Sequence record: OZ346219.1
DNA from: a phage
DNA length: 64,000 bases
Direction: 5' to 3' (one strand)
The position numbers were made by a program, and so were the translations under genes. Shown here in pieces: positions 8,824 to 62,164 of this stretch; the stretch's first letter is position 1; each line of letters starts with the position of its first letter. The notes beneath the pieces are model-generated. The model did not search any database and had not been told where the DNA came from. It worked only from the letters and a program-made list of their open reading frames with translations.

Positions 8824-9582
8824 TTACTTGCAAACGTATTGATCTACATCAATTGCGCCACCGAATGTAGGATGACGTTTTTCAAATCGAATAGTTCCGT
8901 CGTTTGGTTCGAAAACGGAGTATTCATATAGATCTTTCTTACCAACATTCTTATAAAACCCGCCTTTAGTCATAACGGTTTCTTGTACGTTTGCTTTGTG
9001 TACGTTGTATTCATCAATGTATACAAAATCAACCATCTTCCCATTTTTAATGGTTACTTTAAGATCTCCTGGTTGATTTCCATATTTGGCATACAGTGGC
9101 GCTTCTTTAATTTTTGTGGAAATTCCATCTTTCATACTCCACTCATAACGAACGGTGCATTGATAGGTAAAAGTTTCGACCTTCGGTTCTTCTACCACTT
9201 TTGCTTCCTGTTTCGGTTGTTCTTCTTCAACCTTCGCAGAAGTCTCTGAATCGCTTTCTGACGCGGTTTCTTCTTTAGGTAATACATTCATCAAGTTTTG
9301 GATTTGAGCGTTGTATACAGCCTCCAGTGGCTGAATCTGCCCGATATTGATCATTGTGTCACGAACAGTTTTATTCCAGTTTCGTTGCTCTTGTTTCAGA
9401 GACGGATCAATCTTAACAGCCTTAACATACACCTCATGAAGTTTAGAGTCCAGTGCGGAGATAGACTCATTAGCACAAATAAACTTCTCTGATTTGGTAG
9501 TAGCTTTAGCGCAATCAAAGGACGCAGCGTTAGCACCGAAAGCAGTAGCAGAAAGAACGATAGCAGCGATAATGTTTTTCAT
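8824..9582 (-). CDS. secreted protein with N-terminal LprI/DUF1311-like (lysozyme-inhibitor-type) domain
   Basis: Signal peptide MKNIIAAIVLSATAFGANA; then SFDCAKATTKSEKFICANESISALDSKLHEVY matching the C-x-x-A-x-T-x-x-E-x-x-I-C...LD..L...Y DUF1311 signature; own promoter and RBS GAGGAA. Confidence 0.6.
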   Translation of the reverse strand: MKNIIAAIVLSATAFGANAASFDCAKATTKSEKFICANESISALDSKLHEVYVKAVKIDPSLKQEQRNWNKTVRDTMINIGQIQPLEAVYNAQIQNLMNVLPKEETASESDSETSAKVEEEQPKQEAKVVEEPKVETFTYQCTVRYEWSMKDGISTKIKEAPLYAKYGNQPGDLKVTIKNGKMVDFVYIDEYNVHKANVQETVMTKGGFYKNVGKKDLYEYSVFEPNDGTIRFEKRHPTFGGAIDVDQYVCK

Positions 9583-18848: not shown

Positions 18849-18876
18849 ATTATAGAGAATCTCCCTTGTATGTCAA
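18849..18876 (-). promoter_or_regulatory. early promoter TTGACA-16-TATAAT flanked by AAGGGAGA/TCTCCCTT palindrome
   Basis: Minus strand: TTGACAtacaagggagattctcTATAATgggagtctccctt. Confidence 0.5.
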
Positions 18877-23461: not shown

Positions 23462-23775
23462 TATCCTAAAATCCTCACCTTGCGAACACAGATAGTATTG
23501 AGTTCTCGCCGTACCCGTTCTTTTTCATATTCAGGAATTTTATATTCGATACCATCCCGAACAATTTCAGAAGACCGGATTATACCAAATTTTCGTTTAG
23601 GCACAACCTTGTATTTCGGTTCACCTGCCAATAGACTCTCACAATAATCTATCTGATCACACATTGACGCTAACGCAGCATCATGTGTTTCGCAAGTTAG
23701 GACGCGACCTTTCGCGTCCACTGAGTATTGAAAGAATCCGTCTTTATCACGATAACATACAGCAAATACATGCAT
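23461..23775 (-). CDS. hypothetical protein (104 aa; positional equivalent of T4 dda.1)
   Basis: Track ORF, ATG overlaps the upstream stop. Confidence 0.4.
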   Translation of the reverse strand: MHVFAVCYRDKDGFFQYSVDAKGRVLTCETHDAALASMCDQIDYCESLLAGEPKYKVVPKRKFGIIRSSEIVRDGIEYKIPEYEKERVRRELNTICVRKVRILG

Positions 23776-24530
23776 TATAAACCTACCTTAGCTTTCATCA
23801 ATTCAATCCACGACGCATCAATCGGAAGCCCGTATTTCACGCGTTCTTTTTGTGCTGGCGTTAAGTTCTCATACTTAGAAAGAGATTCAATCAAAACGCT
23901 GGTATATTTTAGCACGATTTCGGTATTGTTTGCAATAGCCTTTAGTTTTTCCTCTTTCTTGTTGATTTCGCTAAGGGCTTGCTTGAGATCTGCAATTTTC
24001 TGATAACGTTCTTCCATACGGAAGAGAGTATTTTTAATCGCTCGCTCTGCTGCCTCTGCTTTCTCCGGTTCGTTGTGCTTTTTGTGGCGCTCGATTGCTA
24101 ATTTCTTTTCTTCGATTGCCATTTCCTGATTTTTGATGCGATTCTCGTTAAGTTCGATCCACTCGATGTACTTCGCACGTAGGGCAATTTCATCATCAGA
24201 AAGTTTACCGTTAGTTCCTAGTTCCTGGATCTCTTTAAGAGATTCGATAGTGTGATTGCCACGGAAAGAATTGTATTTCAGTTTAACCGGAATTACATTG
24301 CCATCAACATATCCCAGATTGCAATCAATGCGCTCTAAGGAGAGTCCGTCATCACCTTCACCGAAAGCCTCACCTGAATAGGCACAATGAGTCTGGCGGT
24401 AAATGTTACGAACAGTGACTAAGCTCATAGAGAAGTCTTTGTTGCGACGTGAAGCACCAGCCATGATAGAGTTCAGCCGGAAAACAACCAGCGCCAATTC
24501 TTCGTTAGATTTAAAAGCAAACAGTTTCAT
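23775..24530 (-). CDS. hypothetical protein (251 aa), coiled-coil rich; possibly Srd-like by position
   Basis: Position after dda matches T4 srd; the long Lys/Glu-rich helical region was not matched to any sequence I can recall. Confidence 0.3.
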   Translation of the reverse strand: MKLFAFKSNEELALVVFRLNSIMAGASRRNKDFSMSLVTVRNIYRQTHCAYSGEAFGEGDDGLSLERIDCNLGYVDGNVIPVKLKYNSFRGNHTIESLKEIQELGTNGKLSDDEIALRAKYIEWIELNENRIKNQEMAIEEKKLAIERHKKHNEPEKAEAAERAIKNTLFRMEERYQKIADLKQALSEINKKEEKLKAIANNTEIVLKYTSVLIESLSKYENLTPAQKERVKYGLPIDASWIELMKAKVGL

Positions 24531-24591
24531 AATTGATTCTCCTTAGTTGGCATGTGTGTATTATTGTCTATCTGGTTTGTGCTGTCAACAC

Positions 24592-25095
24592 TTAAATTAA
24601 AGAAAATTTGTAAATCTCTATCAGATCGCCATTACACGCGTAAACTTCCTCGATCTCATCAAGGATCATGGTCGTCCCTGTCTTGTATATGCACTCGCGC
24701 TCATCTGCCAACATAGCATACAAAGACAGTCGAGTAGTCGGATTGTCATACTCTTTAGACACCACTCGGTCAATAGCATGTTCGTAATAATTCATGCAAG
24801 GCTTGGTAGGTTTTATTGCAATAATCTTTCCTGTTGCATAAACATCGGTTGCAAAGTCCTCTGCTGTTGATTGCAGTGGCGTAAAGCTCATAGGACGCTC
24901 TACAACGAAAGAATCACCCACAATTAAGGTATCCAGCTTACGGCCTTCTCTTTTTCTCACACCGCGATACAAGGCTTCATGATGCACTAACCGCTCAGTC
25001 TTTTCAATCAATCCATTAAGGATCGACATATCGATATTTTCTTTAGAGTTCATCACTTCATCAATGATGTTAAGTTCTTCTGGTGTAAATTGCAT
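24592..25095 (-). CDS. putative ADP-ribosyltransferase (ModA/ModB-like, 167 aa)
   Basis: Position corresponds to T4 modA/modB; candidate R-S-E triad (YRGVRK, MSFT, DERE); motif-level only. Confidence 0.4.
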   Translation of the reverse strand: MQFTPEELNIIDEVMNSKENIDMSILNGLIEKTERLVHHEALYRGVRKREGRKLDTLIVGDSFVVERPMSFTPLQSTAEDFATDVYATGKIIAIKPTKPCMNYYEHAIDRVVSKEYDNPTTRLSLYAMLADERECIYKTGTTMILDEIEEVYACNGDLIEIYKFSLI

Positions 25096-25128
25096 AATAA
25101 AAAAGCCTCCAATCTTTCGACGGGAGGC
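25096..25128 (-). terminator. stem-loop (GCCTCC-12 nt-GGAGGC) plus U-run between gp56 and the downstream gene
   Basis: 6-bp GC stem followed on the minus strand by TTTTTTATT and then the ATG of 24592-25095. Confidence 0.5.
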
Positions 25129-25157
25129 ATAATAAAACCATTATAGAGTAGTGTCAA
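25129..25157 (-). promoter_or_regulatory. early promoter TTGACA-17-TATTAT immediately upstream of the terminator hairpin
   Basis: Minus strand: TTGACActactctataatggtttTATTATgcctccc; predicted start site falls inside the hairpin's left arm. Confidence 0.45.
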
Positions 25158-25164
25158 CTAATTT

Positions 25165-25689
25165 TTAGTAGCCGCGTTCTTGACGGGCGAAGTTTTCAGC
25201 ATTTTTCAGATAGTACAGAATAAAGAGTTCTTGAGCGTCAATACCCAGCGGGATCATCTTTGACAGAATGAAGTGGATCGCGTCCACAAATTCAAATTTC
25301 ACTTCAAGCTGATCTTCCGGTGACAGTTCAGAGAATTTACGCGCTCGCGCTTCTCCGTGGTTCTTTTTCCACATTTTCCAGATTGCACTTGCATCTTTAC
25401 CATTGGACATTCCACCCAGCGATGTGTAAAGCTCTCGTGTTTCGTCTGCGATAGCGTCATCCATCCGTTGCATCCAATCCAGCATTTCACCGCAAGTCTC
25501 TAGCTTAGTTGGATTTGGGACCCAATCAAATTTTTCGGATAATGCAACCTGCAAACCAGTTTGCATTTCGAGCATCACCTGAAACGGATCTTTACCTTCT
25601 GCAATCGCGTGATGATATGCGGCGATAGCCGCGTTAATATCTTTTTCGTTAACCAGACCAGCACAAGAATTAAATTCTGACATATTCAC
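25165..25689 (-). CDS. gp56: dCTP pyrophosphatase gp56 (MazG-like)
   Basis: GKDPFQVMLEMQ, KLETCGE, SPEDQLEVKFEFVDAIHFIL, LYYLKNAENFARQERGY match recalled T4 gp56. Confidence 0.75.
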   Translation of the reverse strand: MNMSEFNSCAGLVNEKDINAAIAAYHHAIAEGKDPFQVMLEMQTGLQVALSEKFDWVPNPTKLETCGEMLDWMQRMDDAIADETRELYTSLGGMSNGKDASAIWKMWKKNHGEARARKFSELSPEDQLEVKFEFVDAIHFILSKMIPLGIDAQELFILYYLKNAENFARQERGY

Positions 25690-26730: not shown

Positions 26731-27285
26731 TCACCTCTCTTTATATCGTGATGTTCTGGTCTGACTCTTCCATATTCTTCTTATGGTTATCGTGTGCACT
26801 CCGTATATTATAGCAAGTTCTTTTACAGACGCAACACCCTGTTTAGACCTGATCTCTTCTACTTGATGGTCAGTTAACTTTGCGTTTCCGTGTGTTTCTC
26901 CATAGTTTTTGTTCAATCCTTCTTCTTTAGCGTGTATAAGATTTTCTCTTTGTGTTGTCCACTCAAGGCCATACAGATCAAAATCCTTTTTATCACCAAA
27001 TTTGTGATTTACTACAGGGTAGTTGTTTGGATTTGGTATAAATGCTTCTGCTAATGCCCTATGAATATAAACGCCGACGGTCTTTGGCTTGCCCGACTTT
27101 GTTCTGTTGGCGTAATCTCTTATATTACAAGAGACATAACCTTTTGTTATTTTAGTTGATCTGACCTTGCCAGTGGCTTTATTTCTTAGTTTACCATAAG
27201 AACTAATTTCATATTCTGGATACGATACGCCCATATAAACAAGGTCTTTCCATTCTTCTGGATGTTCATCACAATACCGTTTCAT
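26731..27285 (-). CDS. HNH homing endonuclease (NUMOD4-like N-terminus plus HNH_3-like core)
   Basis: W..L..GVSYPEYEISSYGKLRN (NUMOD4-type) and VNHKFGDKKDFDLYGLEWTTQREN (HNH-type) motifs. Confidence 0.7.
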   Translation of the reverse strand: MKRYCDEHPEEWKDLVYMGVSYPEYEISSYGKLRNKATGKVRSTKITKGYVSCNIRDYANRTKSGKPKTVGVYIHRALAEAFIPNPNNYPVVNHKFGDKKDFDLYGLEWTTQRENLIHAKEEGLNKNYGETHGNAKLTDHQVEEIRSKQGVASVKELAIIYGVHTITIRRIWKSQTRTSRYKER

Positions 27286-27300
27286 GATGTTATTAACCTC

Positions 27301-27504
27301 TTATAGCTCAAATTTCATGAAAGTTCCTACACTTTCATTTTCATTCTCTCCGTTTTCATCTAAGCCAAATTTGTAGACACTACCATCTGGCGATGTGTAA
27401 GAGAATACACGAAAACGGCCTACCGAATCAAGTTCTGTAAATTCATATTCTTTTCCGGCTTCAAAAAGTGCATATGTGCTTTTAAGACATTTCATCGTAA
27501 TCAT
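27301..27504 (-). CDS. hypothetical protein (67 aa)
   Basis: Track ORF. Confidence 0.4.
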   Translation of the reverse strand: MITMKCLKSTYALFEAGKEYEFTELDSVGRFRVFSYTSPDGSVYKFGLDENGENENESVGTFMKFEL

Positions 27505-36776: not shown

Positions 36777-37466
36777 TTAGTCGGTGTAGCTGGAGTCAAG
36801 GTCACACGCGATCATATAAGATACGGTTTCACTTGCCAGCCATACAGCCTTACGGCGAGTGAAGCTCAGTTTGTAATCGCCGAAGTCAGTAGCAACCAGT
36901 TTCATGTTATCTTTACGAATAAAGAAATGGAAGTCTGCGGTTCCGGTATATTCGCCCATGTCAAGACAAAACATCTCATTAGGATTATTTTTGTCAATCT
37001 CTTCCCAACCTTTGATCATCAGACGACCATCAATCGGAAGAAATTCAAGGCGGTCCACTTTAAGCTGATTGCTCATTTTCATAAGCTGTTTCAGATCGTC
37101 GTTGCTCAGTTCGTAATCTACATCGCTTGCAGGTGGAGTAACTCGGCCTTTCGGTGATACGATAGCAGCAGCACTAGCACCAGGATAATTAATTTTCAGA
37201 CGATCATTAGACACACGAATGTTTCCGGTGCGGTCATCAACCGTAATATCTGCTTCATCGCCTACCAGATTCAGAATACCCAAGAAAGAGTTAAGATCAT
37301 AGATCCCAATTTCGTGTTCCAGTTCTTGATTCAGAGTCGCTTCACCATATACAACGTTTGTCATGTTTTTGGTGATCAGGACGTTTCCTTTTTTCAGGAT
37401 GATACCTGGGTTAATAGCGGAAAAGTTTTTCAGGGTAGCAATGGTTTCTTTAGTCAGTTTCATCAA
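36777..37466 (-). CDS. gp45: sliding clamp gp45
   Basis: 229 aa; MMKLTKETIATLKNFSAINPGIILKKG resembles the T4 gp45 N-terminus. Confidence 0.8.
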   Translation of the reverse strand: MMKLTKETIATLKNFSAINPGIILKKGNVLITKNMTNVVYGEATLNQELEHEIGIYDLNSFLGILNLVGDEADITVDDRTGNIRVSNDRLKINYPGASAAAIVSPKGRVTPPASDVDYELSNDDLKQLMKMSNQLKVDRLEFLPIDGRLMIKGWEEIDKNNPNEMFCLDMGEYTGTADFHFFIRKDNMKLVATDFGDYKLSFTRRKAVWLASETVSYMIACDLDSSYTD

Positions 37467-62135: not shown

Positions 62136-62164
62136 ATTATGATATACCCTATTCCGGTTGTCAA
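62136..62164 (-). promoter_or_regulatory. early promoter TTGACA-17-CATAAT
   Basis: Minus strand: TTGACAaccggaatagggtatatCATAAT. Confidence 0.5.

Follow-up and report, generated by a model that had tools for sequence, protein, structure and literature searches.

A predicted early promoter abutting a terminator hairpin between gene 56 and modB of an RB49-like Krischvirus: a probable PeSL cassette with the modB Shine-Dalgarno sequence in its stem

Introduction

How can an early promoter stand directly against a terminator hairpin and still express the gene beyond it? The question is raised by a minus-strand gap of 69 nt between the stop codon of gene 56 and the ATG of a modB-like gene, which contains both a promoter and a terminator hairpin. 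The gap lies in a 64,000-nucleotide stretch of phage DNA (record OZ346219.1; hereafter the window, numbered from its first nucleotide). The window belongs to an RB49-like Krischvirus, with about 99.5% identity to RB49 over 1.3 kb, and the genes of the region run on the minus strand in the order primase (61), dCTPase (56), modB-like, Srd-like, Y01A, and Dda helicase. The modB-like product matches phrog_832 (RNA polymerase ADP-ribosylase; E 3.7e-20), which bears out its initial description as ADP-ribosyltransferase-like; a Pfam search with the protein gave no match, and the gene is about 30% identical to the ModA/ModB-annotated genes of other T4-like genera.

Both halves of the arrangement were predicted in RB49, in which an early promoter (Pe:9496, positions 9446-9496, minus strand) and a TransTerm terminator (9430-9453, labelled 'modB<--56') have been described (Nolan 2006, PMC1524935). 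Window position x corresponds exactly to RB49 position x - 15675 (RB49 modB starts at 9420 and 56 ends at 9490), and the sequences are identical. The RB49 predictions are therefore the same two elements, but they were entered separately in supplementary tables, and the accessible parts of the text do not discuss the 8-nt overlap of the promoter and terminator intervals or its consequence (Nolan 2006, PMC1524935). In GenBank, the promoter is annotated in GEC-3S, the terminator in Makalu_002 and Makalu_003, and the ribosome-binding site in Makalu_002.

The class to which such an element might belong is also known. Promoter-early stem-loops (PeSLs) number about 51 in RB49 and 52 in phi1, and consist of a near-consensus sigma-70 promoter (TTGACA-N17-TATAAT), an AT-rich region ahead of it, a stem-loop at which transcription from upstream ends, and a downstream Shine-Dalgarno sequence and ATG (Arbiol 2010, PMC2839356). 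The stem-loop occupies one of five positions relative to the promoter, one subclass having it just downstream of the -10, and lacZ fusions have demonstrated promoter activity for PeSL193/192 and 206/205 and terminator activity for 211/210 (PMC2839356). PeSLs have since been described as composite promoter-terminator motifs (Comeau 2014, PMC4122927). The 56/modB cassette is not named in the main text of Arbiol 2010 (PMC2839356). With the class published in 2010, other members experimentally supported, and both halves predicted in 2006, the cassette is a minor discovery; what we add is a reading of the hairpin in which its stem contains the modB Shine-Dalgarno sequence, and evidence that the cassette is a recombination boundary.

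Results

Layout of the 56/modB gap

The initial annotation had read the minus strand as TTGACA-17-TATTAT followed by the arms of a hairpin, a U-run, and the ATG of the next gene, and we found all of these elements where it had placed them. The gap runs, 5' to 3' on the minus strand, AAAATTAG, TTGACA, a 17-nt spacer, TATTAT, the hairpin, U6, AUU, and AUG, with nothing between the -10 hexamer (which ends at 25129) and the hairpin (which starts at 25128). Its features and the flanking genes are as follows.

25165..25683 (-), gene 56 (dCTP pyrophosphatase): open reading frame with Pfam dUTPase_2, annotated as gp56 in RB49, GEC-3S, and others
25167-25165 (-), TAA stop codon of gene 56, 7 nt ahead of the -35
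25158..25166 (-), A/T-rich stretch AAAAATTAG, 5' of the -35, sharing bases with the 56 stop codon
25157-25152 (-), -35 hexamer TTGACA (6/6): minus_35_signal in GEC-3S, invariant across the relatives examined
25135..25151 (-), spacer of 17 nt, the most variable part of the cassette (JSE, Phi1, and the metagenomic relative L012)
25134-25129 (-), -10 hexamer TATTAT (5/6): minus_10_signal in GEC-3S, invariant in the relatives
25128-25105 (-), terminator hairpin GCCUCC-C-GUC-GAAA-GAU-U-GGAGGC, 24 nt, -13.8 kcal/mol (RNAfold and scan)
25128-25123 (-), outer left arm GCCUCC, occupying the promoter discriminator
25122 (-), 5' bulge C
25122/25121 (-), predicted transcription start, C then G, the 7th/8th nt past the -10 (sigma-70 geometry)
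25121-25119 (-), inner stem GUC
25118-25115 (-), loop GAAA
25114-25112 (-), inner stem GAU
25111 (-), 3' bulge U
25110-25105 (-), outer right arm GGAGGC
25106..25110 (-), modB Shine-Dalgarno GGAGG, inside the right arm; ribosome-binding-site annotation in Makalu_002; AUG 10 nt on
25104-25099 (-), U6 tract abutting the stem; 5 to 7 U among relatives
24592..25095 (-), modB-like ADP-ribosyltransferase gene, 167 aa, phrog_832 match, AUG at 25095

The A/T-rich stretch at 25158..25166 may act as a partial UP-like element. The sequence between the 56 stop codon and the -35, TAAAAATTAG, corresponds to the AT-rich upstream region of PeSLs (Arbiol 2010), and it is short because the stop codon lies only 7 nt from the -35. 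An internal TATAAT within the spacer (25145-25140) was considered as an alternative -10 and rejected: it has no -35 at 16-18 nt (the sequence there is CTAAAA), has no TG extension, and is absent in JSE.

Promoters and terminators of this kind exceed chance expectation

A promoter scan scored TTGACA-17-TATTAT at 11 of 12 hexamer matches, close to the sigma-70 consensus carried by PeSLs. The minus strand of the window holds 28 sites that reach at least 11/12 matches and the plus strand 0, compared with 1.4 +/- 1.1 (maximum 5) in 30 dinucleotide shuffles, so that the promoter class is about 20-fold over shuffles and split 28 to 0 by strand. Hairpins followed by a U5 tract number 8 on the minus strand, compared with 0-2 in 10 shuffles. 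We conclude that the promoter and terminator classes are genuine features of the genome, far above chance. That a hairpin and a promoter-like string met by chance in so short a gap could be argued from a looser threshold of 9/12, at which a 10-kb scan found 25 promoter-like sites and the shuffles predicted 25.7. The counts at the stricter threshold and those for terminators refute that explanation at the level of the class, and the arrangement recurs across the window and is kept in relatives, so coincidence is an exceedingly improbable account of this gap.

Folded alone, the hairpin has a free energy of -13.8 kcal/mol, and it is part of the minimum-free-energy fold of the region. A built-in terminator scan restricted to gapless stems misses it because of its 1x1 internal loop, and a scan permitting internal loops recovers it at 25128-25105. 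A GC-rich hairpin with a U-tract within 0-2 nt is the mark of an intrinsic terminator, and the cassette has the GC-rich stem, a GNRA tetraloop, and U6 abutting the stem, as in canonical intrinsic (Rho-independent) terminators. It differs from them in that its 5' arm doubles as the promoter discriminator and its 3' arm as the ribosome-binding site. The equivalent RB49 hairpin (9430-9453) has a TransTerm confidence of 100 (Nolan 2006 supplement, PMC1524935). A bidirectional terminator was considered and rejected, as there is no T-run past the hairpin on the plus strand. An Rfam scan of the whole window gave no family at the gathering score and therefore indicates no known structured RNA here.

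Promoter-initiated RNA is predicted to lack the terminator hairpin

The predicted start (25122/25121) falls on the 5' bulge and the first base of the inner stem. Transcription from sigma-70 promoters prefers pyrimidine-purine geometry at the start site, and this geometry favors G25121. In RB49, the model of promoter Pe:9496 extends to 9446, the equivalent of window position 25121 (Nolan 2006, PMC1524935). With a start at 25122/25121, the outer left arm (25128-25123) would fill the discriminator and would therefore be left out of promoter-initiated RNA. The initial annotation had put the start inside the left arm; as a refinement, the predicted start lies at the 3' edge of the arm and not in its middle.

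We compared the predicted folds of the read-through and promoter-initiated leaders with RNAfold. RNA reading through from gene 56 forms the hairpin with a probability of about 1, with U6 directly after it, and these properties, together with the TransTerm score, agree with the proposal that gp56 read-through would terminate. In the promoter-initiated leader, no start from 25124 through 25119 retains the predicted terminator helix, so the contrast between the two RNAs is robust to uncertainty about the start site and the claim that promoter-initiated RNA cannot form the hairpin holds across this range. Each step of the logic by which the modB-like gene would be decoupled from gp56 survives in silico, and this logic corresponds to the composite terminator/promoter concept put forward for PeSLs (Arbiol 2010, PMC2839356). 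The initial interpretation was nonetheless incomplete, because it overlooked both the identity of the right arm as the modB Shine-Dalgarno sequence and the role of the cassette in recombination.

The terminator stem contains the modB Shine-Dalgarno sequence

GGAGG is the sole Shine-Dalgarno sequence for the modB ATG, and it lies wholly within the right arm of the hairpin, 10 nt upstream, a spacing at the long end of the range. Its predicted pairing probability is 1.0 in read-through RNA versus 0.25-0.65 in promoter-initiated RNA. Among 87 minus-strand gene starts, modB ranks first for how tightly its Shine-Dalgarno is paired in the read-through context (median 0.49); the starts came from a crude gene caller that produced one artefact (a start at 18850 overlapping a -10), which leaves the rank of modB unaffected. 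As the Shine-Dalgarno would be locked in the stem, RNA that escapes termination is predicted to be untranslatable at modB. The accessible parts of the literature on these elements do not state that the modB Shine-Dalgarno lies in the right arm of the terminator, and this placement would add a translational lock to the transcriptional one.

A precedent exists in T4, in which the long transcripts of genes e, soc, 49, and I-TevI sequester the Shine-Dalgarno, and RNAs from proximal promoters, which lack the 5' strand of the stem, are translated (Uzan and Miller 2010, PMC3014915). The 56/modB cassette resembles this switch in that its Shine-Dalgarno is predicted to be sequestered in long RNAs and accessible in those begun at the nearby promoter. 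It differs in two respects: T4 uses gp55-dependent late promoters (TATAAATA), which delay translation until late, whereas the promoter here is of the early sigma-70 type, and the cassette hairpin additionally has the U-tract of a canonical terminator. We searched the 56/modB gap for the late promoter TATAAATA and found none; with a sigma-70 promoter and no such motif in the gap, the cassette is predicted to work like the T4 e/soc family but is not a member of it.

The position of the Shine-Dalgarno suggests a different emphasis, in which the hairpin is mainly a translational mask, a 3' stabilizer, or both, and is a partial terminator; long 61-56 RNAs would then enter modB untranslated, and only promoter-initiated RNA would be translated. 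The complete pairing of the sole Shine-Dalgarno, its first rank among the 87 starts, and the T4 precedent all speak for this emphasis. Against it, the U6 tract abutting the stem and the TransTerm score of 100 are the anatomy of an efficient intrinsic terminator, and the T4 cases depend on late promoters of a type that is missing from this gap. We therefore regard a hairpin that acts mainly as a mask or stabilizer as rather unlikely, although it is compatible with insulation by termination, from which it differs only in which effect dominates.

As a separate observation, GGAG in Shine-Dalgarno sequences is the motif cut by the T4 RegB nuclease (PMC3014915). The modB Shine-Dalgarno contains GGAG, which would be shielded from RegB when paired.

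The cassette as a probable member of the PeSL class

The 56/modB cassette shares with PeSLs its phage lineage, a promoter with N17 spacing, and an adjacent stem-loop that would terminate upstream transcription. It is likewise bounded by the upstream stop codon and by a downstream Shine-Dalgarno and start codon at its 3' end, its stem-loop lies just past the -10, and it is tied to indel and recombination junctions. There are also departures from the usual form. The stem is GCCUCC/GGAGGC and not a G-run paired with a C-run (Gn-loop-Cn), the Shine-Dalgarno lies within the right arm and not in a separate 3' element, and the cassette is located in a conserved block of replication genes, ahead of a gene of known family, and not in a hyperplastic region ahead of an ORFan.

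When we classified the strong promoters of the window by the position of the best nearby hairpin, the published PeSL subclasses were reproduced (coordinates are those of the -35).

Hairpin upstream of the -35: 62164, 59756, 50151
Hairpin between the hexamers: 57467, 9868
Hairpin overlapping the -10: 56791, 53566, 18876, 18507, and others
Hairpin downstream of the -10: 25157, 36799

The whole left arm lies upstream of the predicted start in 11 of the 15 intergenic promoter-associated hairpins of the window, and at 25157 it is the six outer-arm bases that do so. The cassette at 25157 is the only strong U-tract terminator downstream of a -10 in the window.

The other hairpin of this group (GGGGAGUAUAAAAUACUCCCC, about 36765-36745, for the minus-strand -35 at 36799) begins 6 nt past the -10, and the whole stem-loop would enter its own transcript. 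It could be a 5' stabilizing hairpin or a self-attenuator.

Conservation and recombination at the cassette

Differences among nine Krischvirus genomes are confined to four places in the cassette: the spacer changes in Phi1 and JSE, the 5' bulge base changes in AV108, the U-run has 5 or 6 U, and the upstream A-run varies. A scan of viral contigs added the metagenomic relative L012, whose ModB is 75% identical; its U-run has 7 U, and its cassette otherwise departs from that of the window at the 3' bulge base and at four positions of the spacer. Neither the nine genomes nor L012 show any change in the hexamers, the two stems, the GAAA loop, or the Shine-Dalgarno. This pattern of variation is in agreement with function. 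Because the stems are invariant in all relatives, the comparison provides no covariation support for an RNA structure, and because ModB homologues outside Krischvirus are at most 35% identical, they provide no alignable upstream regions.

The L012 comparison also revealed a mosaic. An island of 93-98% identity covers the cassette and extends on either side, by about 60 nt within 56 and 45 nt within modB. Identity is 50-80% in the bodies of these two genes, while the 61/56, 56/modB, and modB/srd boundaries are 93-100% identical (window spans 25740-25650, 25230-25050, and 24600-24395). Since the conserved island extends into both 56 and modB, its conservation may reflect recent recombination and not selection on regulatory elements, and the PeSL linker model of module exchange fits the mosaic at least as well as purifying selection by itself.

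JSE and G37-3 show a second type of junction: their gene 56 has diverged strongly, and it is separated from modB by an antisense HNH homing-endonuclease gene. Homology to the window ends about 30 nt into 56 and resumes at the first T of the -35, and in JSE the first half of the spacer is also different. The regions concerned are as follows.

JSE (locus L003): 1082-2563
G37-3 (locus L004): 1073-2563
Window equivalent: 25661-25157

The arrangement resembles that of T4 SegF, which adjoins gene 56. The promoter has been kept at this junction, where any read-through from 56 would face 0.9 kb of antisense gene, which argues that the promoter is needed.

These findings bear on two further explanations. 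In the first, the main reason for the conservation of the cassette is its use as a linker in recombination, with selection acting on homology for module exchange and not on the decoupling of 56 from modB. The homology breakpoint exactly at the -35 in JSE and G37-3 is what such a linker would produce, as are the islands of 93-100% identity at three boundaries that flank 50-80% identical gene bodies in L012, which follow the PeSL shuffling model. A linker alone leaves unexplained why the spacer, the bulges, and the length of the U-run vary when the hexamers, the stems, and the Shine-Dalgarno do not; moreover, the published model unites both roles, which do not exclude each other. We consider conservation mainly as a linker to be improbable.

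In the second, the sigma-70-like site is weak or inactive, and modB is expressed only by attenuated read-through, with the hairpin keeping a potentially toxic ADP-ribosylase low. The HMM score of Pe:9496 is modest (11.3, compared with 28.9 for the srd promoter; Nolan 2006, PMC1524935), the -10 is TATTAT and not TATAAT, and the promoter may be weak because its GC-rich discriminator, GCCTCC, departs from the usual downstream sequence of the family. However, almost no ModB is predicted from read-through RNA, in which the Shine-Dalgarno is fully paired; neither hexamer varies, even in JSE and L012, where the spacer has been replaced; the promoter is kept exactly at the JSE/G37-3 junction behind the 0.9-kb antisense gene; and the 28 to 0 strand bias supports the promoters as a class. 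An inactive or weak promoter, with modB dependent on read-through, is accordingly a decidedly improbable reading.

Discussion

We favor the reading that this RB49-like Krischvirus carries here a PeSL cassette of the subclass whose stem-loop directly follows the -10, and that the cassette serves both as regulatory insulation and as a homology patch for module exchange, and we assign it a probability of about 0.78. According to this model, transcripts from 61 and 56 would carry both arms of the hairpin; the arms would fold into the -13.8 kcal/mol stem ahead of U6, most of these transcripts would end about 10 nt short of the modB AUG, and in any residual read-through RNA the modB Shine-Dalgarno would stay locked in the stem. 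Host sigma-70 RNA polymerase at TTGACA-17-TATTAT would start at about 25122/25121, past the outer left arm, and the resulting RNA, without the 5' strand, would escape termination, have a free Shine-Dalgarno, and express modB and the srd-dda genes. The output of modB would thereby depend on its own early promoter. As DNA, the conserved cassette would act as a homology patch for the exchange of neighboring gene modules. The cassette would then be a compact example of how T4-like phages insulate neighboring early genes, in which one short sequence ends a transcription unit, starts the next, and marks a point of module exchange. Our search of the literature on transcription in RB49 and Krischvirus turned up neither a transcriptome of an RB49-like phage nor Term-seq or 3'-RACE data.

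A fuller version of the model can be proposed tentatively, at somewhat under even odds. In this version, the one 24-nt hairpin is at once discriminator, terminator, and Shine-Dalgarno mask; ModB is made solely from RNA of its own early promoter, the longer-lived 61-56 RNAs yielding none; and the near-identical flanking cassettes allow phages to exchange modB alleles as whole units. If that is true, the cassette would be the counterpart, with an early promoter, of the T4 e/soc late switch, and would confine a host-modifying ADP-ribosylase to the first minutes of infection.

The genes around the cassette include three further features.

24560-24588 (-), srd promoter TTGACA-17-AATAAT: RB49 Pe:8927, HMM score 28.9
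23775-24530 (-), Srd-like protein: phrog_1400, E 6e-74
26731-27285 (-), HNH endonuclease gene, 184 aa: phrog_59, E 1e-31, between a 67-aa open reading frame (27301-27504) and primase gene 61

The srd promoter has no associated stem-loop at -7 kcal/mol or better, and transcripts from the modB promoter should therefore continue into srd. The N-terminal 100-170 residues of the Srd-like protein also match HNH endonuclease and endonuclease VII PHROGs (E 1e-10 to 1e-12). The HNH gene at 26731-27285 is probably a homing-endonuclease insertion, because GEC-3S and Makalu_002 have no gene at that position. Lastly, a near-identical leader (acacacatc, then aaGGAGaatcaaaATG) is present in many early cassettes of the minus strand, including those with the -35 at 62164, 59756, 57467, 53566, 24588, and 9868.
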